Assembly (NCBI GenBank): GCA_030390025.1
Contig: CM059431.1
Coordinates: 117,244,001-117,308,000, forward strand
Direction: 5' to 3'
Origin: Squalus acanthias
Taxonomy: Eukaryota
Length of the DNA: 64,000 bases
Shown: in pieces, positions 8,233 to 26,946 of the stretch
Numbering within the stretch: the first letter of the stretch is position 1
How the letters are laid out: each line of letters begins with the position of its first letter
Made by a program: the position numbers and the translations under genes
Notes under the pieces: model-generated
Database searches by the model: none
Told to the model about the DNA's origin: nothing
The model's input: the letters and a program-made list of their open reading frames with translations, nothing else

Positions 8233-8262
8233 GTGGTGGTGGTGGTGGTGGTGGTGGTGGTG
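8233..8262 (+). repeat. (GGT)n microsatellite
   Basis: About 10 GTG/GGT units read directly. Confidence 0.9.
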
Positions 8263-8365
8263 ACCAGTGTCAGTCTCCTCCTCTTCCTGCTCCCAGAGAC
8301 CACCTCTCCTCCTCCCTCTGAGGCAGCTGTACAGCCAGCAAGGCTGAGAATGAGGTTTCAGACAA

Positions 8366-8492
8366 GTGTACTCTTTTGGTGCACACTATAAACAAATAAA
8401 CTATAAATTAAAAAAAAACATTAAAAAAAAATTAACAACTGAAGTTAAAATTTGGTTGGCCGGTGTGATGATGCACTCCAGTCCCTGCGGTG
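8366..8492 (-). mobile_element. Short Tx1-like LINE 3' end
   Basis: Reverse complement matches 6855-6976 (PQGLECIITP, tail caccaaaagagtacac). Confidence 0.65.
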
Positions 8493-10096: not shown

Positions 10097-10567
10097 TTCG
10101 GCACTTTACAGCCTTCTGGACTCAACATCAAGTTCAACAATTTCAGACCATAACCTCTGCCCCTATCATTTTTTTCCATTTTTCTTTCTCTCTCTCACAT
10201 GGCAGCTGTCTTTCATTCTGCCATCGCCATTTACACCTCATCTAGAGCCATCTTTTGTTTCTTAACTTGTCCCATTACCATCTCCTTTTGCCTTGCACCA
10301 TCATCCCTTTTGTCTCGTAATCTCTCCTGCCTTCCATCCTCTCACAGACCTTCCCTTTTGTTCTTTCCTCCCCTCCCCCCTTTCCCTGCCCCAACACTTG
10401 CTTAAAAACCTGTTCCATCTCCAGTTTTTTCCAGTTCTGACGAAGGGTCATTGACCTGAAATGTTAACTCTGTTTCTCTCTCCACAGATGCTGCCTGACC
10501 TGCTGAGTATTTCCAGCATTTTCTGTTTTTATTTCAGATTTCCAGCATCCGCAGTATTTTGCTTTTG
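9403..10567 (+). mobile_element. 5'-truncated Penelope-like element (GIY-YIG endonuclease region plus terminal repeat)
   Basis: ORF with RVPLVLTFHP, CxRxRCxTC and VYCMRCSRCSLLYFGETKRRLGDRFAEH; pyrimidine-rich 3' region; hammerhead motif. Confidence 0.85.
10431..10471 (+). ncRNA. Minimal hammerhead ribozyme motif in the Penelope terminal repeat
   Basis: CTGACGA (10437-10443), stem II AGGGTCA/TGACCT, GAAA (10458-10461), then TGTTAAC; Penelope elements are known to carry minimal hammerheads. Confidence 0.65.
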
Positions 10568-11682
10568 TAAGAAGTACATCTGCTTTTTTTAAATACAGCT
10601 CCTGCTGGCTATGATAAGGAAATCTTGGATTCAGCATGCTTTCTGCAGTGAGACCTCTATAATTTATTCTCCCAGGTTCTAGCACTGTTTTTCATAGAGA
10701 TTTTTTCCCCCAATTTTGCTGTGGAAACTTAAACAGATAATTAGTTCTTGCACTTGTTTTATGTTAAGTCTGTTGAAAGGCCTCAATTATCTTGAACTAC
10801 AGGGGGATATAATCCTTACCACGGGGCCTAACCTTATTATTTCTCGGGAGCACTCTGTTAAATTTAAAACATGGGGAAACTGATGATGCATTTTTAAAGA
10901 AAAATATGATAGAGCTGTAATGCAGAGAAAGTATAAACACTGTCCATATAAGTAAAAGAGAACTGACATATTTATGTCAATATCATGATATCCAATAAAT
11001 TGCTGGAAATATATGACTACATCTAGAAAGAGAAATTATTTCTGTGGAAATCCTTTTATTAAAATTCAAGTAGAGACCCTTTGCTCGTCTGTTGAAGGGC
11101 CTCCAGACAAAGAATTTAAACTATTGTTTTGTTCTTTTTAGGTGTTGATGAACCTACATCCAGCTTTCACTGCTTTCATTTTAGATTTTCCAGTAATTTA
11201 CACATTATTTCTTTTTAACCCATGATGACACATTATTACATTTATATTACATCATTAGATATGCTCCATAATTTTCCTCGAAGAGTATTCCAATAAATAG
11301 GATTAAAAGAAACTCCCTTTATCAAAATTAGAGTTGGGCTTAAGCATAAAATATGCAGATATGAAGAGGAGGACAAAAAGAAATAAGTTCAGCCAAAGAT
11401 TGAAATGTGAGGTTCTTAACATGGCTTTGTATTGTAAGGGATTCTGACCCTGCGTGTCTCGCAGCCTGTGAGATTCACGCGGCTCTGTGCAGCCTGTATG
11501 TCAGTGCGGGTCTAGGCCTTGTTGCCTGTTCTGGTCTCCAGCCAGTCTGGGAACACTAGACACACCTGTGAGTGGTTCGAATCACTCTCCCTTACGGTTC
11601 TAGACACTGGACTTAGATGCGAGAGCAGTAATGGAGATGAAACTCATGTAGACTTGGTTTGAATGGTACGAAATGGAAAATC

Positions 11683-11688
11683 TTTATT
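11683..11688 (-). terminator. LTR polyadenylation signal AATAAA (also at +7757 and +15514)
   Basis: tttatt on the + strand; conserved at the equivalent position in related LTRs (39094-39099 and 41682-41687). Confidence 0.7.
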
Positions 11689-11892
11689 GCATGATACTTA
11701 AGATTATGAAATACATGTCATAAGCACAGATTAATGACAGTACAATCTTACAAACAGTTATATAGTCGATCTTAGGGAAACGAGGAACGAACGGCACAAA
11801 GTAAATAGGGGCACACATTACAAATATCCTTAATCCTTAAACCTCCCCTATCAATATCTATCCTAAAACTAGATTCGTAGGATTTCGAGACT

Positions 11893-11904
11893 CATGCTCA
11901 CCAC
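11893..11904 (-). promoter_or_regulatory. Putative major splice donor in the LTR R region (TG|GTGAGCAT)
   Basis: TGGTGAGCAT is retained in all three LTR lineages (also 38879-38888 and 41835-41844) despite divergent surroundings. Confidence 0.55.
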
Positions 11905-12277
11905 TCGTGATAACTCGGAGAAATTCCGAATAGCTGATCGGATGTTTTTCACCGCAGCACCCACGTGTCGGTCAGGAGATCTCCTGGTCCCACTTGTTTA
12001 CTTGCTTTTACTGCTCCGGCTAGCAGGCTGGAACGTCTGCTGTGATGAAGACCTGTGTTGGTTGGTTTAACAGGTACTCTTCGAGCACAGTTGTCGATAT
12101 CGTCGATACGATATGGCTTTCACATTCCAGTTACTTTGGGCACAGTCCAGTTATCATCGATGCAATATGTTTCGTTATAAGTTCGAAGAAGTCTTCCCAG
12201 CGAGGAAAACGTGGATAATCGACCTACAGGCGCGGTCGGGATTTACTGACCGTGGCGATGGATATGGTCTTCCTCTC

Positions 12278-12312
12278 TTCTCATCTCATCTCATCTCATC
12301 TCATCTCATCTC
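12278..12312 (+). repeat. (TCTCA)n pentanucleotide run inside the LTR
   Basis: tctcatctcatctcatctcatctcatctcatctc, same length in all three LTRs. Confidence 0.85.
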
Positions 12313-12508
12313 GGGCCTTTGGTTCCGCTGCCAGTTACCAACATAGGTCTTCGTTACGCGACACGAGGTAGATCCGAACGGATCAGAAAGTTCAACAGTC
12401 TTTTTCAAAGAGTCAACAGGCAAGCAGGAGCCCGACTACGAGTACACAGGAGCAGCCACGAGGTTACGAAATAAGAGCACAGGATAAGAGAAAGCTGGAC
12501 GGTTTGGA

Positions 12509-12521
12509 GCCTGCAATTATA
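12509..12521 (-). promoter_or_regulatory. Putative LTR TATA box (TATAATTGCAGGC); 5' LTR copy at about 28023-28035
   Basis: gcctgcaattata here versus gccttcaattata at about 42177-42189 in the diverged solo LTR; GC box/E2F-like ttttcccgccc just upstream. Confidence 0.55.
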
Positions 12522-13123
12522 GTGCAAAATCTTCCGTTTTCCCGCCCAACTATAATGTCCATTCTTTTGTTTAGGGTTTGGCGCTCAAAATGTCTTGTAT
12601 GGGTGATCTCCGTTCTTAATGGGTTTCGGGGCTACTCGTAAATGTCTGAGTACCTGTTAATATTTCTCCCATTGTTAAATCGGTCGGTGTTCTCCCTGGA
12701 GGGGTTTGGGGCTTCCAAGTGTCCTGTATAACTACCTGCTAACGGCTCTCTCATCGTAGAGTCGTTGGGATTTTACATATTAATGTCTTTTGGATGGGCC
12801 CTTGATTACTCGGTACAATGGCTTTCCTTTGTACCTGGGAGACCGATTTCAGTATCTATGTGTATACTGCAAACCCATAATGTCTCGTGTATTATCTTCA
12901 CTGTGCTGAATCTTAATCGATCTTGCACAAATGTTTATTGGAACGCCATCTTGTCTGCCTGTTGAAAAGTCTAGAATGTTCTGTCACGAGGTGCGGCGGC
13001 CATTTTACAGGCTGCTTGTGTCCACTTTAAACCTGCCAGCATTCTACTGAAATAAAAGCTGTTTGAACGAAACTCTGTGTTTTCTCCTTATTAATAAAAT
13101 CGCGATATATTGCGAATTCTACA

Positions 13124-13135
13124 GTCCCTCCTGTT
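13124..13135 (-). promoter_or_regulatory. Polypurine tract-like sequence (AACAGGAGGGAC) abutting the 3' LTR
   Basis: Purine-rich run immediately 5' of TGTAGAATT on the minus strand. Confidence 0.6.
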
Positions 13136-13574
13136 GATGCGAATAACTCCGCTTATCGTATCAAAAATCATAGTGGTGAGCAATATTATCTTGATTTCTC
13201 TCCGAATCCAGTAAATTAATCCCATAATTTTAACTTAGCTAGGGTCTCTGTGTCGTCCTCATTTCCCAAGAAAATTACATTTTATATCACCGTAGGCATT
13301 ATTTGCCCTTAAACTTACACCACTTGTTTTCCTTCCCGGCGTAACCAGGCCGATGCCTCTCGTATCACCTGTATATTCATCTTTTATTCAGGGAAAGGAG
13401 AAACAGAACCCAAAACCAAACAATCATTTTTAACTGTAACACCATCACCAAAATAAATCAACACCAACTCTTAAAACATGTCGAGTTCCCAACGTATTTA
13501 CAATCTCTGAAAATCTTATATGAGTACAGGCTTCCGCGGCGCACGCGGCGAGCGGGAGTGACGCCATTTTCCGA

Positions 13575-15926
13575 TTACACGGTGCTCTCATCGTGCACGC
13601 GCACGTAACGTTCTCGCCACTCTCCCGTGTTTTCATGCTTGGTGAGGCGTTTGTCTCTTTTACAATGTACAACCAATAGGTACACTACAATGAAAACTTG
13701 GCATACGACTAAAATGTGGGAGGCTATTCTGATCCATGAAGGTACTTCAATATTGGTGAACAGATTCCACCACGGTGGAACTACTATATCCAGAATGTCT
13801 GTTCCTATTTCGACAGTTTTCTGCTCTAATGTGTAAAAATGTTTCTGTGACACCGCGACGGCTTTCAAAAGCTTGGTGAGGTGTTCAGGGAGAGGGGGAA
13901 TGAGGTATCCAAAATGCGCGACGAATCGCTGCAAGTCGGTGAAATTCTCTTTTACTGTGAGATGAACAGTGGATGGTTCAGGGATTGGGATAATTCGCTG
14001 TTGTGCTACTTGAACTTCCGCCCTGGGTTTAAAACAGAAACTGCTGTCACTCACCGGACACCGGCTACGGTTTCCATGCTGGTAGTGTTGCGCTGCAGTG
14101 GTAACACAATATGTTCCACCCCCGATGTATGCTACCTGCGGAGGCACATGATCTTGTGCCATTGCCTCCATGGTGCAATTCATGGACTTGGCGCCAGCCG
14201 TTCTGAACCCGCACTGTGGTGTTAAAAAGGCATTCAAGTGCTGGGGGCACAGTATTATGTGTGCTCCCCTGCCACGACAACCAGAGAGATCTGTACCTGT
14301 CATCGTTTGCTCCCAGCGGATGACGTAAGGTGGAACCGCTGCATAACGAATGTGGGCTCCCCCCTGAATGACACCGATGTTCTCTACCCGATATACCGGG
14401 GCGGGCTTTGCTGTGTCGCCCAAAACCGGCATACGTAAAACTATACCCATGATGGTATGGTTTGATCGTCCGCAGTCCACGGGGACTGGGTAAGCTTCTG
14501 AAGCTAGCCTGAGCTGGCATGGACTTAATGCGTTCTGAAAAGGGTGGAGCGCCCGCAGGTGTTTGTTACTTATCCAGGACGGAACCAAACCTTGTTTTAA
14601 ATCCTCCAAATTACTGCGGCCCTCGCCCAGTAACCACGCCCCGTAAAGCACGCACACCTCGTTCTGCGCAGCTTGATCGGATGCATTCCGATCTTCCCTA
14701 ATCAGGGCATTTACCGTCTTTGCATGTTTCTCCAACTCTGCTACAATTTCCTTTAAATGGAGAGTCATGGCTTGGTCCTCGTGTAGACCCGACCCTACCA
14801 CTTTATTCTCATCTGTTAGAATGTCCTTTAATTGTGTCTTTAAACCATTAATCTGGGTCTGCAGCTCCACACTGTCTAGAGCGTTGACCACAGATGTACC
14901 TGTGTTAAAAGCAGTGAACGCATCGTTCACCAAACCCCTTCTTTGCCTCCCTACTTGATCCAAAACTTCCTGTGGTGCGGTGTACAAACTTGTTTTATCA
15001 ATTTCCGCGAAATCGAATTCGTAAAATTGTCTGAACATCTTGGTCAACAGGACCTGGTACAACTGTTCCGTCTTTTTGGGGCACCACTCTGGTAACCGCA
15101 CCTCAGTGAGATTTAAAATCACCGAGGCCACCGCGTAATGTACCCCCTGAAATAGTATCTGGTCTGTGGGGACCAGTACCAAACCATTCCCGGGTCCCTT
15201 ACTAGTTTTAGGGCACCCTTCTTCCTCAGCTAGAACCACCGGAATCGTGGGCGGGGCTTTGCGTGGGCGCGTAATGAGCTCAGTGGCATTTACTGGGATC
15301 GGGGAGAATGGGGCTCCGCACCCCCTGGTGCTCGCATCCCACCTCATCCCCTGTCCGTTATCCTGCCATTGATTAATAAAAAATATGGAGATGCCTTTGG
15401 GGCAAACGTACTTTGACCCCCACATACATACATAAATTCCCTCATCCGGTTCCCACCATTTGTCCCAACAGACTTTCACTTGTCCGTCTGTCCCCGTAAT
15501 TGTCCGATGGGTATTATTACCCAGTCGTTCCCACTCGACCGAAGAGTTCCTCATAGTTTTGCTCAGCTTTCGCAGCCACCACCATCGGCTCAATGGGACC
15601 TTCCCACTACAAGTCAAACAAATCCGTTTGCCGACGGTGACGCTGATCCTGGGTGCGATGATCCTTACTTTGGGGCACAGTAAAGAAGTCTCTTTGTAGG
15701 CAAACCCCGATGTGCTGGAATACTCCGTTGAGTTCGTTCCCAGCCATCCTGGCCACCTTCCCTTGTGAAAATAGGTGCTGGTCTCCTCTGCCTCCCGTCT
15801 TCCGGTCCCATCCACCGCGATGGGGGCCGTGTCCCCGGAACATCCAAACACCACGACATCCTTGGTGCGGCCTCGATAGGCCAATCCACATCCGATTGCC
15901 ACGAGCAATACTAGAATTCGTTCCAT
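13575..15926 (-). CDS. env: Envelope glycoprotein, copy 1 (783 aa from the likely ATG; open frame extends to 16109): signal peptide, Ig-like domain, furin site, class I F-like fusogen, TM
   Basis: Signal-like MERILVLLVAIGCGLA in strong Kozak context (AAGATGG); LTC...W...DEGIYVC; RQRR|GLVNDAFTAFNTG; heptad repeat; Cys-rich region; TM IASHILVVCQVFIVVYLLVVHC; several N-x-S/T sequons. Confidence 0.88.
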   Translation of the reverse strand: MERILVLLVAIGCGLAYRGRTKDVVVFGCSGDTAPIAVDGTGRREAEETSTYFHKGRWPGWLGTNSTEYSSTSGFAYKETSLLCPKVRIIAPRISVTVGKRICLTCSGKVPLSRWWWLRKLSKTMRNSSVEWERLGNNTHRTITGTDGQVKVCWDKWWEPDEGIYVCMWGSKYVCPKGISIFFINQWQDNGQGMRWDASTRGCGAPFSPIPVNATELITRPRKAPPTIPVVLAEEEGCPKTSKGPGNGLVLVPTDQILFQGVHYAVASVILNLTEVRLPEWCPKKTEQLYQVLLTKMFRQFYEFDFAEIDKTSLYTAPQEVLDQVGRQRRGLVNDAFTAFNTGTSVVNALDSVELQTQINGLKTQLKDILTDENKVVGSGLHEDQAMTLHLKEIVAELEKHAKTVNALIREDRNASDQAAQNEVCVLYGAWLLGEGRSNLEDLKQGLVPSWISNKHLRALHPFQNALSPCQLRLASEAYPVPVDCGRSNHTIMGIVLRMPVLGDTAKPAPVYRVENIGVIQGGAHIRYAAVPPYVIRWEQTMTGTDLSGCRGRGAHIILCPQHLNAFLTPQCGFRTAGAKSMNCTMEAMAQDHVPPQVAYIGGGTYCVTTAAQHYQHGNRSRCPVSDSSFCFKPRAEVQVAQQRIIPIPEPSTVHLTVKENFTDLQRFVAHFGYLIPPLPEHLTKLLKAVAVSQKHFYTLEQKTVEIGTDILDIVVPPWWNLFTNIEVPSWIRIASHILVVCQVFIVVYLLVVHCKRDKRLTKHENTGEWRERYVRVHDESTV

Positions 15927-15938
15927 CTTTCCTTGGTT

Positions 15939-15960
15939 CCTGTGATCAGATAGAATGAGG
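15939..15960 (-). promoter_or_regulatory. Candidate env splice acceptor
   Basis: Minus strand CTCATTCTATCTGATCACAG|GAACCAAGGAAAG-ATG; the acceptor lies 13 nt before the env ATG. Confidence 0.5.
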
Positions 15961-16212
15961 TAGCCAGCCTCGCAAGAGTCTCTGGCTTTTGTGAAGGGTG
16001 AGCGGGTCCCCTGACCTCGCCTCACGTAAACTTCAACGTTCGCTGAATAAACTTTCACTAAACCTATCTTTAAAACTCCCATCATTTTATCGTTTTCTGT
16101 TAAAAACACTACAAACTTAACCTTATTAAAGCTATAAACTTAACCTTGAAATATTAACTTAAAACTTATTACTACTTACTATACAGTGCCGCCCGTTCTC
16201 AGGGCGGCCCCT

Positions 16213-17373
16213 TTAAATTCTGAGAAGGCTGCTGCGAGCTCTTCCCGACGGTGGGAGGGCACTGACCCTTCCCTCTGATCTGCCGCAGCCTGTTACTGCG
16301 CTGACCCTTCCCTCTGATCTGCCGCAGCCTGTTACTGCTGCGATGTGGCCGGTCTGTACCTGGGTTATCTTAACCTTAAATTTTCGCCTTGGGACAGTCT
16401 GGGGACATGACCACATCCTCCTGGGCTGGGGTTCTCTACTTGACCTACGGGGAGTTGCTGTGGGCGGGGGTTCCGTGACGGACGGACCGGGTTCCGAGAC
16501 CTCCATCGGGATGACCTGGGGTTCCATCACAGTCGCCGGCTCCGCCTCCGCTGACTCCGCCTCCCTAACCTCGGGGCTGGCAGTTCGTGGCTCCGCCCTG
16601 CTCGGCCCAGCAGGCGGCCCTTCACTCGTGATCTCTGCCTCCCCTGAGGACTGGACGTTCAAAGCGGGCGGCCACATCTCTGGGAGCCACACCGGTACTC
16701 TCTGTGCTCCCATAGCGGCTGGCCCTGCCTCCTCTAGCTCCTCCCTCCTGTCTTCGGGACCTGCAGCTCGTGTGTCCACCCTGTGTGGATCTCTACCTGC
16801 AGCCCCCGTCCCCTCCATATCGTAAAAGGGACCGTTCCTCCGAAACCACCCGTCGTCATCACTATCCTCATCTGCACTATCCTCATCTGACCCGGGTACC
16901 CTGAATTCTTCCTCATCTAACCCCCAATTCCAGAAAAACGCTGCATGATCGTCCGGGATGTCCCTTCCTCTGATGCAAGCTGCTATGCCTGCCTGTGTGC
17001 CTTGTGGTCCTACCTGGGGCTGTGCTTTCCCACTGGCGGGATTTACCCCTGTGATTTTCCCTTGCGCACCTGGCTTGTACAGTTTGCACTGGTTTGCATC
17101 CTCATACTCCCGGCTTTTGGCTACCCTGTAGGCTGCTTTTATCTCACTAAGCTGCGCTTCTAGCCTGAGCACGTCTAACTTTCCCATTGCTCGGGCGTTC
17201 TCCTCCCGCAGGGCCTGCTCTCTAAGCTGCCCTTCCAGCCCATCTATTTTCCCTATTAAGCGGGCGTTCTCCTCCCGCAAGGCCTGCTCTTTTAACCTGG
17301 CCTCCTCACCGCAGACCCCCTCCTGTGCGTGTCTTTTAAAAGGACACAGGTAGGCAGGCTGCGTGGGCTCTAG
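16213..17373 (-). CDS. ORF2, copy 1: 386 codons in frame with gag after a single TGA; coiled-coil N-part, acidic tract, Pro/Glu-rich C-part; function unknown
   Basis: Manual translation 3' of the gag TGA gives LEPTQPAYLCPFKRHAQEGVCGEEARLKEQA, continuing without a stop into the 355-aa ORF of the track (which starts at TTG). Confidence 0.75.
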   Translation of the reverse strand, partial: LEPTQPAYLCPFKRHAQEGVCGEEARLKEQALREENARLIGKIDGLEGQLREQALREENARAMGKLDVLRLEAQLSEIKAAYRVAKSREYEDANQCKLYKPGAQGKITGVNPASGKAQPQVGPQGTQAGIAACIRGRDIPDDHAAFFWNWGLDEEEFRVPGSDEDSADEDSDDDGWFRRNGPFYDMEGTGAAGRDPHRVDTRAAGPEDRREELEEAGPAAMGAQRVPVWLPEMWPPALNVQSSGEAEITSEGPPAGPSRAEPRTASPEVREAESAEAEPATVMEPQVIPMEVSEPGPSVTEPPPTATPRRSSREPQPRRMWSCPQTVPRRKFKVKITQVQTGHIAAVTGCGRSEGRVSAVTGCGRSEGRVSALPPSGRARSSLLRI

Positions 17374-19185
17374 TCATTGGGTACTATTAGACGGTCCTGC
17401 GGCACCTACGGGGCCGGTTGCGACCGCCACCTGTCCACGCGCATTCAAGACCAGCTTGCGCATGGCTCCTAACACTGCTTCGAGGTCGTCGGGAGGGGTG
17501 GGTGCCTTGGCTTCCTTAGCCGGGACAGGCGCCTGGGCTCGGACCGCGGGATTTTTATCCTTGGAATCCTTCCAAGGGTTCCTGCAATGCTTGCGCCAGT
17601 GCCCTGTCTTCCCACACCCGTAACAAGCATTACTTGCCTGTGGGGCGCGATTACCCTCTTGATGCCACTCTCTTTGATACGGGGCTGCGGGTCGTACCTC
17701 ATGTACTCTTCCCTTAAGGGGACGTGTTGCCATACCCCTTATATTGCGATAACCTAACGTGAGTCGATTCAAGATCGACTCTTCCGTAATGTTGGGGTCA
17801 TTGGGATCAAACCATGCTTTTGCCTGCTCTCTGACGGCTGGTAAACTGTTGGCTATTATGCACCTAAGCCAATGAGTTAAAGCTAAACCTTCCACATCTT
17901 CGCGCTCGGGCGCACCTAGACAGCTGCGCTCATATACTGGCCACAGCCTGTCGGCAAAAACCTTCGGGGGTTCTCCCTCCATCTGCACTGTCTGTCCCAC
18001 TCTAGCAAACGGACCTTCGTCGTTCGCCCCCAACACTTCCAGGACCTCATTCTTTAATTCCTCATAACTCTTGGTTCCCCTCTTGCTCTCGCCTGAGAGA
18101 CACTGAAGGACCGAGCTGTCTAATGAGAACAGCAGCATTTTTGCTGTCTCCCCATCATCGCAGCCGTTAATGGCTGCGGCTTGCTCAACTTCTCTGAAAT
18201 GTACGGAAGGGTCGTCTGCCTCGGTCAGCTTCCGTACGTGATTTATCATAGCTCTCAGCTGATGTGAACTGTGAGGCAACACCAGCTGTCCGAGGAGATC
18301 CCCCGGTTCTTCCCCACCGTTTCTGCTTGGGCCCCTTTTAATACCCGTTACTGGATATAACGATCCCTTTCCTACTTCTTTTTCAATGGGCTCTTTTGTT
18401 TCTTCCATTGCTTCCTCCCTAACCCAGGTTTCTGAATAGCTGGGTGGCACGGAGGGCGCAGTGACTACTACTCCTTCTGCTTTACTTGGTGGGGATTTTC
18501 TAAATCTCTCATTTACTAGCGGCTGGTGTGCCGACGGATTGATAAGGCACACCATGCCGTTCGCATTGTTCATGGCCTTTTTGAGGTGCTCTATCTCCCT
18601 TTGGCAGGCGCTATGATCGGCTCCCTGAAACTTATCCTCAAGGGCCAACTTATATGCCGCCCTAACCCCCGTCAAGCTCTCTTCTTGAGTTCTTATCTGG
18701 GCAGCTTGGCGGTTACATCTTTCCTTTAACCTGCTCTCATTCAATTTTGCCTCAGTGACCTGGCACTCGAGATAATCTATCCTTGTTTTAAGGTGACTGG
18801 AGACTTCCTGGCTTTCTTGGTGTAACTCATTTAAATTCTTAATGAGCACCTCCCCTCCAGAAACCTTCTCCTCCATTTCTCCCTCTAAATGACTGATTCG
18901 AGCTACTAGCGCTGTAATGGTCTGGTTGGAAATCTGAACCTGCCTTTTGTAACACATAAGCCAGACTGCTTTCTCAAGTGTCTTTTTATGTTCTTTACTA
19001 TCTGTCCACCTTTCAGCTGCCTCTAGCGGGCTTTTATCCGCTAACAATTCACTTATCCATTTCTTAGTTAGATTAACCTTTCCAAACACATAATCCGCTA
19101 TCTTTTCCTGCATAACATTTCGTACAGTCATTCCAAAATCTAACACACTACCCTCTCGCTGCCAGTGTCCTGCCGCGGTCGCCAT
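17374..19185 (-). CDS. gag: Gag polyprotein, copy 1 (603 aa)
   Basis: Coiled-coil N-part, PPSY late-domain motif, capsid-like region with MHR-like QMEGEPPKVFADRL, CCHC knuckle CYGCGKTGHWRKHC. Confidence 0.92.
   Translation of the reverse strand: MATAAGHWQREGSVLDFGMTVRNVMQEKIADYVFGKVNLTKKWISELLADKSPLEAAERWTDSKEHKKTLEKAVWLMCYKRQVQISNQTITALVARISHLEGEMEEKVSGGEVLIKNLNELHQESQEVSSHLKTRIDYLECQVTEAKLNESRLKERCNRQAAQIRTQEESLTGVRAAYKLALEDKFQGADHSACQREIEHLKKAMNNANGMVCLINPSAHQPLVNERFRKSPPSKAEGVVVTAPSVPPSYSETWVREEAMEETKEPIEKEVGKGSLYPVTGIKRGPSRNGGEEPGDLLGQLVLPHSSHQLRAMINHVRKLTEADDPSVHFREVEQAAAINGCDDGETAKMLLFSLDSSVLQCLSGESKRGTKSYEELKNEVLEVLGANDEGPFARVGQTVQMEGEPPKVFADRLWPVYERSCLGAPEREDVEGLALTHWLRCIIANSLPAVREQAKAWFDPNDPNITEESILNRLTLGYRNIRGMATRPLKGRVHEVRPAAPYQREWHQEGNRAPQASNACYGCGKTGHWRKHCRNPWKDSKDKNPAVRAQAPVPAKEAKAPTPPDDLEAVLGAMRKLVLNARGQVAVATGPVGAAGPSNSTQ
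19167..19184 (-). promoter_or_regulatory. Primer binding site, tRNA-Arg(TCG)-type
   Basis: TGGCGACCGCGGCAGGAC, 5 nt from the LTR end; complementary to the vertebrate tRNA-Arg(TCG) 3' end GTCCTGCCGCGGTCG-CCA as I recall it. Confidence 0.85.
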
Positions 19186-19189
19186 TTTC

Positions 19190-20880
19190 TGTAAGGGATT
19201 CTGACCCTGCGTGTCTCGCAGCCTGTGAGATTCACGCGGCTCTGTGCAGCCTGTATGTCAGTGCGGGTCTAGGCCTTGTTGCCTGTTCTGGTCTCCAGCC
19301 AGTCTGGGAACACTAGACACACCTGTGAGTGGTTCGAATCACTCTCCCTTACGGTTCTAGACACTGGACTTAGATGCGAGAGCAGTAATGGAGATGAAAC
19401 TCATGTAGACTTGGTTTGAATGGTACGAAATGGAAAATCTTTATTGCATGATACTTAAGATTATGAAATACATGTCATAAGCACAGATTAATGACAGTAC
19501 AATCTTACAAACAGTTATATAGTCGATCTTAGGGAAACGAGGAACGAACGGCACAAAGTAAATAGGGGCACACATTACAAATATCCTTAATCCTTAAACC
19601 TCCCCTATCAATATCTATCCTAAAACTAGATTCGTAGGATTTCGAGACTCATGCTCACCACTCGTGATAACTCGGAGAAATTCCGAATAGCTGATCGGAT
19701 GTTTTTCACCGCAGCACCCACGTGTCGGTCAGGAGATCTCCTGGTCCCACTTGTTTACTTGCTTTTACTGCTCCGGCTAGCAGGCTGGAACGTCTGCTGT
19801 GATGAAGACCTGTGTTGGTTGGTTTAACAGGTACTCTTCGAGCACAGTTGTCGATATCGTCGATACGATATGGCTTTCACATTCCAGTTACTTTGGGCAC
19901 AGTCCAGTTATCATCGATGCAATATGTTTCGTTATAAGTTCGAAGAAGTCTTCCCAGCGAGGAAAACGTGGATAATCGACCTACAGGCGCGGTCGGGATT
20001 TACTGACCGTGGCGATGGATATGGTCTTCCTCTCTTCTCATCTCATCTCATCTCATCTCATCTCATCTCGGGCCTTTGGTTCCGCTGCCAGTTACCAACA
20101 TAGGTCTTCGTTACGCGACACGAGGTAGATCCGAACGGATCAGAAAGTTCAACAGTCTTTTTCAAAGAGTCAACAGGCAAGCAGGAGCCCGACTACGAGT
20201 ACACAGGAGCAGCCACGAGGTTACGAAATAAGAGCACAGGATAAGAGAAAGCTGGACGGTTTGGAGCCTGCAATTATAGTGCAAAATCTTCCGTTTTCCC
20301 GCCCAACTATAATGTCCATTCTTTTGTTTAGGGTTTGGCGCTCAAAATGTCTTGTATGGGTGATCTCCGTTCTTAATGGGTTTCGGGGCTACTCGTAAAT
20401 GTCTGAGTACCTGTTAATATTTCTCCCATTGTTAAATCGGTCGGTGTTCTCCCTGGAGGGGTTTGGGGCTTCCAAGTGTCCTGTATAACTACCTGCTAAC
20501 GGCTCTCTCATCGTAGAGTCGTTGGGATTTTACATATTAATGTCTTTTGGATGGGCCCTTGATTACTCGGTACAATGGCTTTCCTTTGTACCTGGGAGAC
20601 CGATTTCAGTATCTATGTGTATACTGCAAACCCATAATGTCTCGTGTATTATCTTCACTGTGCTGAATCTTAATCGATCTTGCACAAATGTTTATTGGAA
20701 CGCCATCTTGTCTGCCTGTTGAAAAGTCTAGAATGTTCTGTCACGAGGTGCGGCGGCCATTTTACAGGCTGCTTGTGTCCACTTTAAACCTGCCAGCATT
20801 CTACTGAAATAAAAGCTGTTTGAACGAAACTCTGTGTTTTCTCCTTATTAATAAAATCGCGATATATTGCGAATTCTACA
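19190..20880 (-). repeat. LTR 2 (shared middle LTR), 1691 bp
   Basis: No difference from LTR 1 seen by eye; PBS on one side, PPT on the other. Confidence 0.95.
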
Positions 20881-20892
20881 GTCCCTCCTGTT
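20881..20892 (-). promoter_or_regulatory. Polypurine tract-like sequence, copy 2
   Basis: Same as 13124-13135. Confidence 0.6.
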
Positions 20893-21331
20893 GATGCGAA
20901 TAACTCCGCTTATCGTATCAAAAATCATAGTGGTGAGCAATATTATCTTGATTTCTCTCCGAATCCAGTAAATTAATCCCATAATTTTAACTTAGCTAGG
21001 GTCTCTGTGTCGTCCTCATTTCCCAAGAAAATTACATTTTATATCACCGTAGGCATTATTTGCCCTTAAACTTACACCACTTGTTTTCCTTCCCGGCGTA
21101 ACCAGGCCGATGCCTCTCGTATCACCTGTATATTCATCTTTTATTCAGGGAAAGGAGAAACAGAACCCAAAACCAAACAATCATTTTTAACTGTAACACC
21201 ATCACCAAAATAAATCAACACCAACTCTTAAAACATGTCGAGTTCCCAACGTATTTACAATCTCTGAAAATCTTATATGAGTACAGGCTTCCGCGGCGCA
21301 CGCGGCGAGCGGGAGTGACGCCATTTTCCGA

Positions 21332-23683
21332 TTACACGGTGCTCTCATCGTGCACGCGCACGTAACGTTCTCGCCACTCTCCCGTGTTTTCATGCTTGGT
21401 GAGGCGTTTGTCTCTTTTACAATGTACAACCAATAGGTACACTACAATGAAAACTTGGCATACGACTAAAATGTGGGAGGCTATTCTGATCCATGAAGGT
21501 ACTTCAATATTGGTGAACAGATTCCACCACGGTGGAACTACTATATCCAGAATGTCTGTTCCTATTTCGACAGTTTTCTGCTCTAATGTGTAAAAATGTT
21601 TCTGTGACACCGCGACGGCTTTCAAAAGCTTGGTGAGGTGTTCAGGGAGAGGGGGAATGAGGTATCCAAAATGCGCGACGAATCGCTGCAAGTCGGTGAA
21701 ATTCTCTTTTACTGTGAGATGAACAGTGGATGGTTCAGGGATTGGGATAATTCGCTGTTGTGCTACTTGAACTTCCGCCCTGGGTTTAAAACAGAAACTG
21801 CTGTCACTCACCGGACACCGGCTACGGTTTCCATGCTGGTAGTGTTGCGCTGCAGTGGTAACACAATATGTTCCACCCCCGATGTATGCTACCTGCGGAG
21901 GCACATGATCTTGTGCCATTGCCTCCATGGTGCAATTCATGGACTTGGCGCCAGCCGTTCTGAACCCGCACTGTGGTGTTAAAAAGGCATTCAAGTGCTG
22001 GGGGCACAGTATTATGTGTGCTCCCCTGCCACGACAACCAGAGAGATCTGTACCTGTCATCGTTTGCTCCCAGCGGATGACGTAAGGTGGAACCGCTGCA
22101 TAACGAATGTGGGCTCCCCCCTGAATGACACCGATGTTCTCTACCCGATATACCGGGGCGGGCTTTGCTGTGTCGCCCAAAACCGGCATACGTAAAACTA
22201 TACCCATGATGGTATGGTTTGATCGTCCGCAGTCCACGGGGACTGGGTAAGCTTCTGAAGCTAGCCTGAGCTGGCATGGACTTAATGCGTTCTGAAAAGG
22301 GTGGAGCGCCCGCAGGTGTTTGTTACTTATCCAGGACGGAACCAAACCTTGTTTTAAATCCTCCAAATTACTGCGGCCCTCGCCCAGTAACCACGCCCCG
22401 TAAAGCACGCACACCTCGTTCTGCGCAGCTTGATCGGATGCATTCCGATCTTCCCTAATCAGGGCATTTACCGTCTTTGCATGTTTCTCCAACTCTGCTA
22501 CAATTTCCTTTAAATGGAGAGTCATGGCTTGGTCCTCGTGTAGACCCGACCCTACCACTTTATTCTCATCTGTTAGAATGTCCTTTAATTGTGTCTTTAA
22601 ACCATTAATCTGGGTCTGCAGCTCCACACTGTCTAGAGCGTTGACCACAGATGTACCTGTGTTAAAAGCAGTGAACGCATCGTTCACCAAACCCCTTCTT
22701 TGCCTCCCTACTTGATCCAAAACTTCCTGTGGTGCGGTGTACAAACTTGTTTTATCAATTTCCGCGAAATCGAATTCGTAAAATTGTCTGAACATCTTGG
22801 TCAACAGGACCTGGTACAACTGTTCCGTCTTTTTGGGGCACCACTCTGGTAACCGCACCTCAGTGAGATTTAAAATCACCGAGGCCACCGCGTAATGTAC
22901 CCCCTGAAATAGTATCTGGTCTGTGGGGACCAGTACCAAACCATTCCCGGGTCCCTTACTAGTTTTAGGGCACCCTTCTTCCTCAGCTAGAACCACCGGA
23001 ATCGTGGGCGGGGCTTTGCGTGGGCGCGTAATGAGCTCAGTGGCATTTACTGGGATCGGGGAGAATGGGGCTCCGCACCCCCTGGTGCTCGCATCCCACC
23101 TCATCCCCTGTCCGTTATCCTGCCATTGATTAATAAAAAATATGGAGATGCCTTTGGGGCAAACGTACTTTGACCCCCACATACATACATAAATTCCCTC
23201 ATCCGGTTCCCACCATTTGTCCCAACAGACTTTCACTTGTCCGTCTGTCCCCGTAATTGTCCGATGGGTATTATTACCCAGTCGTTCCCACTCGACCGAA
23301 GAGTTCCTCATAGTTTTGCTCAGCTTTCGCAGCCACCACCATCGGCTCAATGGGACCTTCCCACTACAAGTCAAACAAATCCGTTTGCCGACGGTGACGC
23401 TGATCCTGGGTGCGATGATCCTTACTTTGGGGCACAGTAAAGAAGTCTCTTTGTAGGCAAACCCCGATGTGCTGGAATACTCCGTTGAGTTCGTTCCCAG
23501 CCATCCTGGCCACCTTCCCTTGTGAAAATAGGTGCTGGTCTCCTCTGCCTCCCGTCTTCCGGTCCCATCCACCGCGATGGGGGCCGTGTCCCCGGAACAT
23601 CCAAACACCACGACATCCTTGGTGCGGCCTCGATAGGCCAATCCACATCCGATTGCCACGAGCAATACTAGAATTCGTTCCAT
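21332..23683 (-). CDS. env: Envelope glycoprotein, copy 2
   Basis: Translation identical to copy 1. Confidence 0.88.
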   Translation of the reverse strand: MERILVLLVAIGCGLAYRGRTKDVVVFGCSGDTAPIAVDGTGRREAEETSTYFHKGRWPGWLGTNSTEYSSTSGFAYKETSLLCPKVRIIAPRISVTVGKRICLTCSGKVPLSRWWWLRKLSKTMRNSSVEWERLGNNTHRTITGTDGQVKVCWDKWWEPDEGIYVCMWGSKYVCPKGISIFFINQWQDNGQGMRWDASTRGCGAPFSPIPVNATELITRPRKAPPTIPVVLAEEEGCPKTSKGPGNGLVLVPTDQILFQGVHYAVASVILNLTEVRLPEWCPKKTEQLYQVLLTKMFRQFYEFDFAEIDKTSLYTAPQEVLDQVGRQRRGLVNDAFTAFNTGTSVVNALDSVELQTQINGLKTQLKDILTDENKVVGSGLHEDQAMTLHLKEIVAELEKHAKTVNALIREDRNASDQAAQNEVCVLYGAWLLGEGRSNLEDLKQGLVPSWISNKHLRALHPFQNALSPCQLRLASEAYPVPVDCGRSNHTIMGIVLRMPVLGDTAKPAPVYRVENIGVIQGGAHIRYAAVPPYVIRWEQTMTGTDLSGCRGRGAHIILCPQHLNAFLTPQCGFRTAGAKSMNCTMEAMAQDHVPPQVAYIGGGTYCVTTAAQHYQHGNRSRCPVSDSSFCFKPRAEVQVAQQRIIPIPEPSTVHLTVKENFTDLQRFVAHFGYLIPPLPEHLTKLLKAVAVSQKHFYTLEQKTVEIGTDILDIVVPPWWNLFTNIEVPSWIRIASHILVVCQVFIVVYLLVVHCKRDKRLTKHENTGEWRERYVRVHDESTV

Positions 23684-23969
23684 CTTTCCTTGGTTCCTGT
23701 GATCAGATAGAATGAGGTAGCCAGCCTCGCAAGAGTCTCTGGCTTTTGTGAAGGGTGAGCGGGTCCCCTGACCTCGCCTCACGTAAACTTCAACGTTCGC
23801 TGAATAAACTTTCACTAAACCTATCTTTAAAACTCCCATCATTTTATCGTTTTCTGTTAAAAACACTACAAACTTAACCTTATTAAAGCTATAAACTTAA
23901 CCTTGAAATATTAACTTAAAACTTATTACTACTTACTATACAGTGCCGCCCGTTCTCAGGGCGGCCCCT

Positions 23970-25130
23970 TTAAATTCTGAGAAGGCTGCTGCGAGCTCTT
24001 CCCGACGGTGGGAGGGCACTGACCCTTCCCTCTGATCTGCCGCAGCCTGTTACTGCGCTGACCCTTCCCTCTGATCTGCCGCAGCCTGTTACTGCTGCGA
24101 TGTGGCCGGTCTGTACCTGGGTTATCTTAACCTTAAATTTTCGCCTTGGGACAGTCTGGGGACATGACCACATCCTCCTGGGCTGGGGTTCTCTACTTGA
24201 CCTACGGGGAGTTGCTGTGGGCGGGGGTTCCGTGACGGACGGACCGGGTTCCGAGACCTCCATCGGGATGACCTGGGGTTCCATCACAGTCGCCGGCTCC
24301 GCCTCCGCTGACTCCGCCTCCCTAACCTCGGGGCTGGCAGTTCGTGGCTCCGCCCTGCTCGGCCCAGCAGGCGGCCCTTCACTCGTGATCTCTGCCTCCC
24401 CTGAGGACTGGACGTTCAAAGCGGGCGGCCACATCTCTGGGAGCCACACCGGTACTCTCTGTGCTCCCATAGCGGCTGGCCCTGCCTCCTCTAGCTCCTC
24501 CCTCCTGTCTTCGGGACCTGCAGCTCGTGTGTCCACCCTGTGTGGATCTCTACCTGCAGCCCCCGTCCCCTCCATATCGTAAAAGGGACCGTTCCTCCGA
24601 AACCACCCGTCGTCATCACTATCCTCATCTGCACTATCCTCATCTGACCCGGGTACCCTGAATTCTTCCTCATCTAACCCCCAATTCCAGAAAAACGCTG
24701 CATGATCGTCCGGGATGTCCCTTCCTCTGATGCAAGCTGCTATGCCTGCCTGTGTGCCTTGTGGTCCTACCTGGGGCTGTGCTTTCCCACTGGCGGGATT
24801 TACCCCTGTGATTTTCCCTTGCGCACCTGGCTTGTACAGTTTGCACTGGTTTGCATCCTCATACTCCCGGCTTTTGGCTACCCTGTAGGCTGCTTTTATC
24901 TCACTAAGCTGCGCTTCTAGCCTGAGCACGTCTAACTTTCCCATTGCTCGGGCGTTCTCCTCCCGCAGGGCCTGCTCTCTAAGCTGCCCTTCCAGCCCAT
25001 CTATTTTCCCTATTAAGCGGGCGTTCTCCTCCCGCAAGGCCTGCTCTTTTAACCTGGCCTCCTCACCGCAGACCCCCTCCTGTGCGTGTCTTTTAAAAGG
25101 ACACAGGTAGGCAGGCTGCGTGGGCTCTAG
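23970..25130 (-). CDS. ORF2 (gag-readthrough extension), copy 2
   Basis: Identical to copy 1; TGA-CTAG junction at 25127-25133. Confidence 0.75.
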   Translation of the reverse strand, partial: LEPTQPAYLCPFKRHAQEGVCGEEARLKEQALREENARLIGKIDGLEGQLREQALREENARAMGKLDVLRLEAQLSEIKAAYRVAKSREYEDANQCKLYKPGAQGKITGVNPASGKAQPQVGPQGTQAGIAACIRGRDIPDDHAAFFWNWGLDEEEFRVPGSDEDSADEDSDDDGWFRRNGPFYDMEGTGAAGRDPHRVDTRAAGPEDRREELEEAGPAAMGAQRVPVWLPEMWPPALNVQSSGEAEITSEGPPAGPSRAEPRTASPEVREAESAEAEPATVMEPQVIPMEVSEPGPSVTEPPPTATPRRSSREPQPRRMWSCPQTVPRRKFKVKITQVQTGHIAAVTGCGRSEGRVSAVTGCGRSEGRVSALPPSGRARSSLLRI

Positions 25131-26942
25131 TCATTGGGTACTATTAGACGGTCCTGCGGCACCTACGGGGCCGGTTGCGACCGCCACCTGTCCACGCGCA
25201 TTCAAGACCAGCTTGCGCATGGCTCCTAACACTGCTTCGAGGTCGTCGGGAGGGGTGGGTGCCTTGGCTTCCTTAGCCGGGACAGGCGCCTGGGCTCGGA
25301 CCGCGGGATTTTTATCCTTGGAATCCTTCCAAGGGTTCCTGCAATGCTTGCGCCAGTGCCCTGTCTTCCCACACCCGTAACAAGCATTACTTGCCTGTGG
25401 GGCGCGATTACCCTCTTGATGCCACTCTCTTTGATACGGGGCTGCGGGTCGTACCTCATGTACTCTTCCCTTAAGGGGACGTGTTGCCATACCCCTTATA
25501 TTGCGATAACCTAACGTGAGTCGATTCAAGATCGACTCTTCCGTAATGTTGGGGTCATTGGGATCAAACCATGCTTTTGCCTGCTCTCTGACGGCTGGTA
25601 AACTGTTGGCTATTATGCACCTAAGCCAATGAGTTAAAGCTAAACCTTCCACATCTTCGCGCTCGGGCGCACCTAGACAGCTGCGCTCATATACTGGCCA
25701 CAGCCTGTCGGCAAAAACCTTCGGGGGTTCTCCCTCCATCTGCACTGTCTGTCCCACTCTAGCAAACGGACCTTCGTCGTTCGCCCCCAACACTTCCAGG
25801 ACCTCATTCTTTAATTCCTCATAACTCTTGGTTCCCCTCTTGCTCTCGCCTGAGAGACACTGAAGGACCGAGCTGTCTAATGAGAACAGCAGCATTTTTG
25901 CTGTCTCCCCATCATCGCAGCCGTTAATGGCTGCGGCTTGCTCAACTTCTCTGAAATGTACGGAAGGGTCGTCTGCCTCGGTCAGCTTCCGTACGTGATT
26001 TATCATAGCTCTCAGCTGATGTGAACTGTGAGGCAACACCAGCTGTCCGAGGAGATCCCCCGGTTCTTCCCCACCGTTTCTGCTTGGGCCCCTTTTAATA
26101 CCCGTTACTGGATATAACGATCCCTTTCCTACTTCTTTTTCAATGGGCTCTTTTGTTTCTTCCATTGCTTCCTCCCTAACCCAGGTTTCTGAATAGCTGG
26201 GTGGCACGGAGGGCGCAGTGACTACTACTCCTTCTGCTTTACTTGGTGGGGATTTTCTAAATCTCTCATTTACTAGCGGCTGGTGTGCCGACGGATTGAT
26301 AAGGCACACCATGCCGTTCGCATTGTTCATGGCCTTTTTGAGGTGCTCTATCTCCCTTTGGCAGGCGCTATGATCGGCTCCCTGAAACTTATCCTCAAGG
26401 GCCAACTTATATGCCGCCCTAACCCCCGTCAAGCTCTCTTCTTGAGTTCTTATCTGGGCAGCTTGGCGGTTACATCTTTCCTTTAACCTGCTCTCATTCA
26501 ATTTTGCCTCAGTGACCTGGCACTCGAGATAATCTATCCTTGTTTTAAGGTGACTGGAGACTTCCTGGCTTTCTTGGTGTAACTCATTTAAATTCTTAAT
26601 GAGCACCTCCCCTCCAGAAACCTTCTCCTCCATTTCTCCCTCTAAATGACTGATTCGAGCTACTAGCGCTGTAATGGTCTGGTTGGAAATCTGAACCTGC
26701 CTTTTGTAACACATAAGCCAGACTGCTTTCTCAAGTGTCTTTTTATGTTCTTTACTATCTGTCCACCTTTCAGCTGCCTCTAGCGGGCTTTTATCCGCTA
26801 ACAATTCACTTATCCATTTCTTAGTTAGATTAACCTTTCCAAACACATAATCCGCTATCTTTTCCTGCATAACATTTCGTACAGTCATTCCAAAATCTAA
26901 CACACTACCCTCTCGCTGCCAGTGTCCTGCCGCGGTCGCCAT
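25131..26942 (-). CDS. gag: Gag polyprotein, copy 2
   Basis: Translation identical to copy 1. Confidence 0.92.
   Translation of the reverse strand: MATAAGHWQREGSVLDFGMTVRNVMQEKIADYVFGKVNLTKKWISELLADKSPLEAAERWTDSKEHKKTLEKAVWLMCYKRQVQISNQTITALVARISHLEGEMEEKVSGGEVLIKNLNELHQESQEVSSHLKTRIDYLECQVTEAKLNESRLKERCNRQAAQIRTQEESLTGVRAAYKLALEDKFQGADHSACQREIEHLKKAMNNANGMVCLINPSAHQPLVNERFRKSPPSKAEGVVVTAPSVPPSYSETWVREEAMEETKEPIEKEVGKGSLYPVTGIKRGPSRNGGEEPGDLLGQLVLPHSSHQLRAMINHVRKLTEADDPSVHFREVEQAAAINGCDDGETAKMLLFSLDSSVLQCLSGESKRGTKSYEELKNEVLEVLGANDEGPFARVGQTVQMEGEPPKVFADRLWPVYERSCLGAPEREDVEGLALTHWLRCIIANSLPAVREQAKAWFDPNDPNITEESILNRLTLGYRNIRGMATRPLKGRVHEVRPAAPYQREWHQEGNRAPQASNACYGCGKTGHWRKHCRNPWKDSKDKNPAVRAQAPVPAKEAKAPTPPDDLEAVLGAMRKLVLNARGQVAVATGPVGAAGPSNSTQ
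26924..26941 (-). promoter_or_regulatory. Primer binding site, copy 2
   Basis: gtcctgccgcggtcgcca on the + strand. Confidence 0.85.
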
Positions 26943-26946
26943 TTTC

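Follow-up and report, generated by a model that had tools for sequence, protein, structure and literature searches.

The question raised by this locus is whether an endogenous retrovirus (ERV) of a shark extends its Gag protein by reading through a UGA stop codon into an open reading frame (ORF) that encodes no recognizable enzyme. The stretch analysed, referred to here as the window, comprises 64,000 nt of the Squalus acanthias assembly GCA_030390025.1 (contig CM059431.1, positions 117,244,001 to 117,308,000). All positions below are in window numbering unless another sequence is named, and the element lies on the minus strand. It contains a gag gene and, directly behind the gag stop, a second frame, ORF2. 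Stop codon readthrough between gag and pro is textbook knowledge for gammaretroviruses. Our analyses make it likely that a fusion of Gag with a remnant of Pro-Pol, which we term Gag-deltaPol, is produced by UGA readthrough and kept open by selection in a young, abundant and helper-dependent ERV family.

At the end of gag the minus strand reads ...AGT ACC CAA TGA CTA GAG CCC ACG CAG..., which places the proposed readthrough codon at 17376-17374 and the tetranucleotide CTAG directly 3′ of it, at 17373-17370. The gag ORF extends over 603 codons from its ATG (19185-17377, or to 17374 with the stop) and encodes one CCHC zinc knuckle, CYGCGKTGHWRKHC, ~70 residues upstream of the stop. The list of predicted ORFs has its next entry beginning at TTG 17280; the 93 nt between the two (17373-17281) are filled by 31 sense codons in the gag frame, and from stop to stop the post-stop frame is open for 386 codons (17373-16216). 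Translation of 19185-16213 with the TGA as X yields 603 + 1 + 386 = 990 residues. This junction, the in-frame link and the 990-residue fusion frame were proposed in a first-pass annotation of the DNA, and their coordinates all hold. The same annotation placed a second junction at 25127-25133. It is 7757 bases away and is an exact copy, because a 7757-base period runs from 11433 to 20744 without a single mismatch.

A search with the window gag of its own 3.7-Gb genome returned 8896 first-look candidates (such figures, here and below, are floors from a first-look search, not copy numbers), and all 73 scored candidates had open frames and identities of 98-100%. The best 30 gag loci split evenly into two types. 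In 15 (type A) the sequence continues after the stop as it does in the window; in the other 15 (type B) it continues as ...CCGCTTAGCTATG.... The type-B frame after the stop encodes LEPAQPVYLCPLSYDAWRRPVVEMEVEKQKGSYLLDTGAS... followed by LDISNGFWSIPL and YVDDLLL, that is, a protease (PR) and then a reverse transcriptase (RT), with LLDTGAS located 34-40 residues past the gag stop. The stop is therefore positioned between the CCHC knuckle of nucleocapsid (NC) and the D(T/S)G of protease, as in the gamma- and epsilonretroviral organization. Gag, stop and pro-pol occupy one frame in 15/15 type-B loci and in 11/12 loci of a second lineage described below. One full type-B copy (L031 plus L032) served as the autonomous comparator. 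It has 1663-bp long terminal repeats (LTRs) that are 99.88% alike, gag at 4206-6014, the TGA at 6015-6017, a 1495-codon pro-pol in the gag frame at 6018-10505 and env at 10598-13162; the open frame that ends at the TGA spans 627 codons. Pfam domains in its pol are RVP, RVT_1, RNase_H, Integrase_H2C2, rve and SH3. Among solved chains the nearest is the Ty3 Gag-Pol polyprotein 7q5b (E 3.5e-71), followed by "p80" RT/RNase H chains (4hkq, 5dmq and 4mh8), which we take to be those of murine leukemia virus (MLV) and the related XMRV, and by foamy-virus PR-RT and integrase (IN). Judged by these matches, the polymerase of the family is closest to the MLV/XMRV and foamy-virus enzymes.

Alignment of the window to the comparator revealed what ORF2 is made of. 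Window 27629-25099 and 19872-17342 align to comparator 3520-6049 with 98.8% identity, a match that runs through gag to 32 nt past the stop, and window 24852-19909 and 17095-12152 align to comparator 9623-14613 with 96.6% identity. Between these blocks 246 window bases are unmatched, and comparator 6050-9622 (3.57 kb) is missing from type A. In their respective frames, comparator 9623 and window 17095 each fall on a third codon position, and protein comparison equates ORF2 residues 1-11 with the start of protease and residues 94-386 with Pol 1203-1495, in the same frame. Specifically, ORF2 consists of the first 11 protease codons (LEPTQPAYLCP, including CTAG; 17373-17341), an insert of 246 nt or 82 codons that is coiled-coil-like and specific to type A (17340-17095), and the last 293 Pol codons with the native pol stop at 16215-16213 (17094-16213). 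It is thus pro-pol without residues 12-1202, with an 82-codon filler instead and with both junctions in frame. The first-pass annotation had treated ORF2 as a separate gene whose link to gag the ORF list had missed; by this comparison it is instead an in-frame remnant of pro-pol after enzyme loss. In type A as a whole we found an internal deletion relative to a sibling with the same LTRs, gag and 3′ part, a continuous frame via the UGA, and presence at many loci, as in a deletion derivative. The absence of PR, RT and IN implies that type A is helper-dependent, with these enzymes presumably supplied by type B. Within the 32 nt after the stop there are five differences between types A and B, and the adjoining upstream gag differs by ~1%.

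The insert contains an internal duplication of ~85 nt. Its match to the element's own gag was insignificant (E 0.38), and two weak matches to coiled-coil proteins with many such stretches (E 2.6e-5 and 4.2e-5, among 1.8 billion representative proteins) were judged generic. The gag protein P0003 aligned to it through residues 142-197 with 36% identity over 58 aa (E 9e-6 with composition adjustment). The alignment ends at a common ...KAAY..A....EDA, and the region corresponds to the N-terminal coiled coil of this divergent-lineage gag. We infer that the insert is a piece of gag from another lineage, gained by recombination. P0003 (619 residues, from a public assembly, 43% identical to the window gag) and P0002 (588 residues, from the skate Rhinoraja longicauda, 50% identical) are the only database relatives of the window gag, and both end in the same terminal Q. 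No longer, fused Gag-Pol protein was found in the protein collection, which is weak evidence. In its own genome the insert gave 1339 first-look candidates, of which the 40 scored were all 100% identical and lay at 32 distinct loci.

The stop and its context are conserved well beyond the window. TGA followed by CT(A/G)G was present in 83 of the 84 gag ends examined. TGA-CTAG itself occurs in 30/30 of the best gag loci, including 15/15 of type B, and in 39/39 young type-A sequences, a set made up of the window copy, 13 copies from the gag search and 25 further copies. Older type-A copies have TGA in 18/18 cases, followed by CTAG in 8 and, behind another gag end, by CTGG in 10. All 57/57 type-A copies thus keep the UGA-CU(A/G)G context. 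We also examined 12 loci of lineage 2, an older group in the same genome that was found with P0003 and is ~85% identical to it. Lineage 2a (5 loci) reads ...CTA TGA CTA GAA CCA GCG CAG CCT GTC (C/T)AC CTG TGT..., and lineage 2b (6 loci) reads ...CAA TGA CTG GAG GCC GCG CAG CCT GTC TAC CTG TGT.... In 11 of the 12 the stop is followed by an in-frame (L/V)DTGA(A/S) protease; the remaining locus, L046, has a 4-base disturbance at the site. With lineages 2a and 2b matching type B in this respect, gag, the UGA and pro-pol share one frame in three lineages that have ~43% identical Gag proteins. The first-pass annotation had looked to autonomous relatives with this junction for confirmation, and type B, lineage 2a and lineage 2b, with TGA-CTAG or TGA-CTGG before an in-frame pro-pol, are such relatives. 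Across the three lineages the UGA, C at +4, U at +5 and G at +7 are invariant, and +6 is A or G. Between autonomous lineages the 21 nt after UGA-CU(A/G)G are likewise conserved, synonymous sites included (GCGCAGCCYGTCYACCTGTGT).

The type II readthrough motif of Beier and Grimm is UGACGG or UGACUA, extended to UGACUAG, and a 2026 review lists UGACUA in alphaviruses and a triatovirus (PMC13517186). The extended motif UGACUAG occurs in the window, 39/39 young type-A, 15/15 type-B, 5 lineage-2a and 8/18 older type-A copies, in agreement with the earlier description of the context as one of readthrough type, and UGACUGG occurs in the remaining 10/18 older type-A and in 6 lineage-2b copies. A gammaretroviral signal (UAG-GGA, an 8-nt purine-rich spacer and an H-type pseudoknot) is not what we found, the stop being UGA and the context CUAG or CUGG; an Rfam search of the junction gave no match. 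The pattern of conservation identifies the stop as the Gag/Pro-Pol readthrough site of the family, as far as genome sequences can identify it.

The frame behind the stop is largely intact in type A. Of the young type-A copies, 35/39 have at least 369 open codons in ORF2. Each of the four broken copies has a lesion of its own (+1 in L018, −1 in L055, a frameshift in L049 and a nonsense change in L048), the three frameshifts all being singletons, and the indels common to several young copies are all multiples of three: −12 (24 copies), −39 (14 copies) and +33 (2 copies). In gag, variants common to several young copies number 21 synonymous to 14 nonsynonymous, and the ratio of nonsynonymous to synonymous substitution rates (dN/dS) between types A and B is 0.18. 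For the env-like ORF it is 0.07, with off-frame values of 2.0-3.0. Purifying selection on the env-like ORF between the two types is strong, and this ORF has been kept by the non-autonomous form.

Older subfamilies extend these observations over a longer divergence. L074 and L075 were identified by searching for exact matches to the type-A post-stop sequence with a non-T base behind it, and both have the full type-A layout: gag (1494 nt examined, with no stop), TGA-CTAGAG, 11 codons, insert and tail. Compared with the window, L074 is 87% identical in the last 30 nt of gag, 32/33 in the 33 nt after the stop, 89% in the insert and 67% in the tail; the corresponding values for L075 are 77%, 32/33, 90% and 75%. 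The post-stop stretch is thus nearly unchanged between type-A subfamilies whose flanking gag is 77-87% and whose insert is 89-90% identical. The open ORF2 measures 350 codons in L074 and 370 codons in L075, and the aligned tails of the window, L074 and L075 contain 0 in-frame stops versus 8-14 in each off-frame. At least seven indel events separate the three ORF2s, all of them frame-keeping, including a 25-codon and a 2-codon event (75 and 6 nt) inside the insert. The L074 and L075 families gave 2706 and 2843 first-look candidates (40 scored, 94-98% and 95-98% identical), and in 14 of 18 copies of these families ORF2 is open for at least 350 codons. Because the older subfamilies carry the same layout, the type-A design is old, having gone through at least three waves, with gag modules exchanged near the stop. 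Judging from these sequences, the stop, its context and the open frame were all kept through the exchange of type-A gag modules. An ORF2 that stays open across diverged subfamilies argues for its translation as an extension of Gag, and since the frame was kept open in propagating lineages over long divergence, the extension, or its translation, appears to matter to the element.

What is preserved seems to be the frame more than its residues. Constraint on ORF2 at the residue level is weak. Two islands stand out in the tail, an acidic FW..G..EEE and a basic ...PQPR(K/R).W... near the C terminus, and both are present in the Pol of lineage 2b as well. A frame that tolerates residue changes but neither stops nor frameshifts fits a disordered linker leading to conserved islands, or a need for translation itself. 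As a separate observation, Pol proteins of this retrovirus group have a tail of 190-290 residues, mostly unconstrained, after the SH3-like domain of integrase (WFHINQCKLYK) (window 16216-17094; L073:1000-1830).

We next consider RNA structure 3′ of the stop. The first-pass annotation described a stem-loop at 17322-17350, in which CCTGTG (17350-17345) and CACAGG (17327-17322) enclose CTTTTAAAAG. These complementary arms are present, starting 24 nt after the stop on the minus strand. As a distinct structure, however, the hairpin did not stand: the minimum-energy fold of the first 92 nt, in which it appears, has z = -1.21, with 22/200 shuffles as good, and the hairpin is absent from a larger 78-nt fold, its 3′ arm sitting in the insert found only in type A. 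A second small hairpin, GCGCAG(N9)CUGUGU, nine nt after the stop, was set aside since its columns never vary, and an inverted-repeat scan found no pair of 8 nt or longer. The better candidate is a 78-nt extended stem-loop (17359-17282, minus strand), which was predicted by RNAalifold from 16 distinct type-A sequences of three subfamilies. It begins 15 nt after the stop, with its 5′ arm in the retained Pro codons and its 3′ arm in the insert. For the window sequence alone it is the centroid fold (-31.7 kcal/mol, z = -2.38, 2/200 shuffles as good), and across the alignment 97.7% of cells are paired versus 38-55% with slid partners, the changes being mostly one-sided and pair-preserving. For the autonomous lineages, the predicted partner of this 5′ arm (UCYACCUGUGU) is ...GAUGGRGGURGA, which lies 37-55 nt farther downstream. 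There 96% of cells are paired, with 2 compensatory pairs, and 4/500 shuffles reach the score, in a comparison of three lineages only; the type-B single-sequence fold has z = 0.14. These predictions hint at a conserved 3′ stem in which the insert has taken the place of the lost partner.

Several observations weigh against readthrough and selection for the open frame. The case for translation itself comes from genome layout and comparison, and no public run recorded as RNA was found to contain the stretch. The copies were chosen as the best matches to the window gag or insert, which biases the sample toward young, intact close relatives. Tail variants in young type A give 35 synonymous to 63 other when common to several copies, versus 16 to 26 when private, the synonymous share being the same in both. 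Between types A and B the dN/dS of the tail is 0.53 (tail off-frames 0.87 and 0.69), a weak constraint, and between subfamilies it is 0.58-0.90 versus 0.56-1.01 for off-frame controls. The insert has a value of 0.42-0.64 between subfamilies, on only 14-24 differences. Part of the openness of the tail, which is the end of Pol, could have been imported by recombination from autonomous elements. With regard to structure, covariation in the 78-nt stem-loop is not above that of shuffles (168/500), L077-L079 contain three uncompensated mismatches in it, and the 3′ arm of the stem predicted for the autonomous lineages is deleted in type A. Finally, the known readthrough efficiencies were obtained in mammalian systems and not in sharks.

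The strongest alternative is that ORF2 is inert baggage: the UGA would act as a tight stop because its downstream stem partner was lost with the deleted segment, the deletion would be in frame by chance, the copies would be too young to have decayed, and the tail would be refreshed by recombination. That residue constraint on ORF2 is indistinguishable from off-frame controls is what this alternative expects; the openness of the young copies carries little information, given that these are 97-100% alike; and recombination is evidently frequent, given that different gag ends adjoin the same insert in older copies. Type A is, moreover, a mosaic relative to the comparator, with identities of 98.8% in gag, 96.6% in the 3′ half and 93.5% in the 5′ part of the LTR. 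Import by recombination cannot, however, explain why the insert and its two junctions stay in frame, because these are specific to type A, and they do so in three subfamilies despite the 75-nt and 6-nt indels. Nor does inert baggage account well for the lack of in-frame stops in tails of 25-33% nucleotide divergence, for a post-stop stretch that is virtually fixed within type A though 5/32 of its positions differ from type B, or for the unbroken retention of UGA-CU(A/G)G in type A. We regard this explanation as improbable, though more probable than the other rivals.

A second alternative, that ORF2 is a distinct accessory gene with a function of its own, incorporated into particles at Gag-Pol stoichiometry, is more doubtful still. 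Maintenance of the frame across subfamilies agrees with it, as do the tail islands common with lineage 2b Pol, including the basic PQPR(K/R) near the C terminus, and the resemblance of the insert to a coiled-coil oligomerization segment. An accessory gene would nevertheless be expected to have sequence of its own, and of its 386 codons 293 (76%) come from the end of Pol and 11 from the start of Pro, whereas the other 82 resemble a gag coiled coil. No part of ORF2 has a family or fold match, and its residues are only weakly constrained. It is very improbable that ORF2 is translated by another route, either through a subgenomic RNA made by splicing or through internal initiation at a Met conserved in the insert. 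In favor of such a route, all three subfamilies have an ATG in the ENAR(A/L)MGK repeat, and the env acceptor must lie in or near the tail. Against it, each subfamily has an open frame that begins with the very codon behind the UGA, and the most conserved stretch consists of the 11 codons that precede the insert, which internal initiation could do without. No spliced joint was seen in contigs from four runs of uncertain type, two of which (X1 and X9) cross the junction without a difference, nor did these contigs show a transcript start or level. An apparent joint in the contigs, from 20883 to 13127, proved to be the normal internal/LTR junction of the chosen stretch.

Readthrough into a retained Pol remnant thus remains the preferred reading, and the following scheme would account for the data. 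In autonomous members, the genome layout suggests that Gag-Pro-Pol arises from occasional readthrough of the UGA. Type A would have arisen when PR, RT, RNase H and IN (3.57 kb) were swapped for the 82-codon, gag-like coiled coil, while the element retained, all in one frame, the stop with its 3′ context, the first 11 codons of protease and the 293-codon Pol tail. Because all these parts share a frame, ribosomes that read through would make the 990-residue Gag-deltaPol and terminate at the native pol stop. According to the review, UGACUAG gives readthrough of at least ~1.3% in 23 human genes, MDH1 (UGACUAGAC) reaches 7.8%, and 3′ structure is only conditionally required for UGACUA (PMC13517186). 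By analogy with these mammalian UGA-CUAG figures, an efficiency of roughly one to a few percent may be expected. The fusion could co-assemble into particles via its Gag part, and autonomous siblings would supply the enzymes in trans. The first-pass annotation had ORF2 made at Gag-Pol-like stoichiometry and packaged, which likewise stays at the level of inference.

As to why an extension devoid of enzymes should persist, possible roles include a cis-acting fusion as in the mouse intracisternal A-particle (IAP) element 1-delta-1, delivery of Pol-tail motifs, and protection of the genomic RNA from nonsense-mediated decay (NMD). Shielding from NMD would explain a strictly open frame with almost freely drifting residues. 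A more far-reaching reading, which we hold to be less likely than not, is that the enzyme-free extension of Gag has long been kept because translating it is useful. The fusion might bring the conserved basic motif of the Pol tail and an additional Gag-type coiled coil into particles and favor its own RNA in cis, or ribosomes that read through and travel the 386 codons to the native pol stop might protect the genomic RNA from NMD. In this reading the 5′ arm of the ancestral stem, re-paired with a 3′ arm from the insert, would preserve a type II signal (UGA-CUAG plus stem-loop) of a kind as yet unlisted for retroviruses.

The element itself is part of a tandem array. The array is organized as LTR-internal-LTR-internal-LTR, and the repeat spans 11433-28640, corresponding to 2.2 periods of 7757 bases. 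The two tandem units differ only at 20745 and 20819, both in an LTR. All three LTRs are on the minus strand, are 1691 bp long and have TG...CA ends, as identified by period identity and by reading the ends: the 3′ LTR of the downstream unit (11433-13123), the middle LTR, common to both units (19190-20880), and the 5′ LTR (26947-28637). They are homologous to the 1663-bp LTRs of the comparator, and a purine tract precedes the 3′ LTR. Protease, RT and integrase are missing from both internal parts, each of which contains gag, ORF2 and an env-like ORF of 854 codons. In the first unit the env-like ORF occupies 13575-16139 from stop to stop (minus strand), with its first ATG at 16085 and a signal-peptide-like start near 15926, and is collinear with the 854-codon ORF after pol in the comparator. 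In the second unit (21332-28637, minus strand) the env-like ORF is at 21332-23896, ORF2 at 23970-25130, the TGA at 25131-25133 and gag at 25134-26942. Searches of Pfam, PDB sequences and Rfam with gag, ORF2, env and the junction returned nothing significant beyond the zinc knuckle, the env-like ORF having no Pfam or PDB sequence match.

Head-to-tail arrays with common LTRs are frequent for type A (e.g., G000 C16:35635472-35651203 and C3:64285889-64318571). Fifteen of the 40 best insert matches sit in seven arrays, one of them with three units, and an older type-A subfamily includes a six-unit array with a spacing of ~6417 bases. ATATA and ATACA border the window array, and a tandem array of ~30 or more copies of a 30-nt unit lies just past the 5′ LTR, at 29221-30511. 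The LTR ends in ...CCCTTACA, with only GAAA before ATGGCGACCGCGGCAGGAC (window 19167-19189, minus strand). A primer-binding-site-like TGG... therefore overlaps the gag start codon, with no leader between LTR and gag. In public runs X1-X14, filed under five organism labels, 40-75% of the words sampled from the type-A-specific stretch are present, and the family may be common to several labels or species.

These findings bear on retroviral recoding in three ways. First, the family adds UGA-CU(A/G)G, a motif of alphavirus and human readthrough, to the retroviral contexts, kept between lineages with Gag proteins only ~43% identical, and so offers a natural system for separating context from structure in retroviral readthrough. 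Second, the helper-dependent form is a natural deletion experiment in which the enzymes are gone while the stop, the 33 nt behind it and the open frame persist through three subfamilies, which suggests that the extension or its translation has a role beyond enzyme delivery. Third, the family is large (thousands of first-look candidates), with many copies 99-100% alike and with open gag, pol and env, which bears on recent retroviral activity in cartilaginous fish. Neither this family nor a UGA-CUAG site in a retrovirus was described in the literature that we searched on shark ERVs and on readthrough, including that of epsilonretroviruses.

Comparison with known systems places the junction between two groups of readthrough sites. 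According to the 2026 review, gamma- and epsilonretroviruses depend on gag-pro readthrough, experimentally verified in gammaretroviruses only, and the retroviral contexts it lists are UAG-GGA, UAGGGC, UGAAGA, UGACGA and UGAAGU, with no UGACUA among them (PMC13517186). As in this family, the gammaretrovirus Moloney murine leukemia virus (MoMLV) and the epsilon-like fish or amphibian retroviruses WDSV, SSSV, ZFERV and RMEV are described there as having one stop in the gag/pro-pol frame between the NC knuckle and the protease DTG, and SSSV, ZFERV and RMEV likewise use UGA rather than UAG (PMC13517186). MoMLV, as presented in that source, has UAG-GGA and an H-type pseudoknot after an 8-nt spacer (PMC13517186), whereas this family has UGA-CU(A/G)G and, as its candidate 3′ element, a stem or extended stem-loop that starts 15-20 nt past the stop. 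The family matches the type II sites that the review names (alphavirus nsP3/nsP4 UGA-CUA, the triatovirus PSIV and human UGACUAG genes such as MDH1) in the heptanucleotide UGACUAG, the sequence here being UGACUAGAG or UGACUAGAA compared with UGACUAGAC in MDH1 (PMC13517186). It differs from them in that the site lies at the gag/pro junction of a retrovirus and its 3′ structure is a predicted one. The UGACUG variant also has a counterpart there, in the alphavirus Trocara virus, and an extended stem-loop is described as an optional enhancer in type II systems, that of CTFV being 78 nt long (PMC13517186).

As a non-autonomous element, type A most resembles mouse IAP 1-delta-1. Both have an internal deletion that leaves a continuous gag-pol frame, depend on full-length helpers in trans (for type A, presumably) and are at least as successful as those helpers, and the IAP 1-delta-1 fusion protein promotes retrotransposition in cis (PMC6466679). 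In IAP 1-delta-1, as described there, part of gag is fused straight to pol with no recoding, whereas type A has a full gag with the remnant behind what would be a leaky stop (PMC6466679). Type A differs further in that its pol enzymes are all gone, a foreign coiled-coil insert has taken their place and env is kept. Pairs of the ETn/MusD type are similar to types A and B in having LTRs and ends common with the autonomous partner and a high copy number, again as the source describes them (PMC6466679). ETn, in that account, is without coding capacity, whereas type A keeps an intact gag, env and an open deltaPol (PMC6466679).

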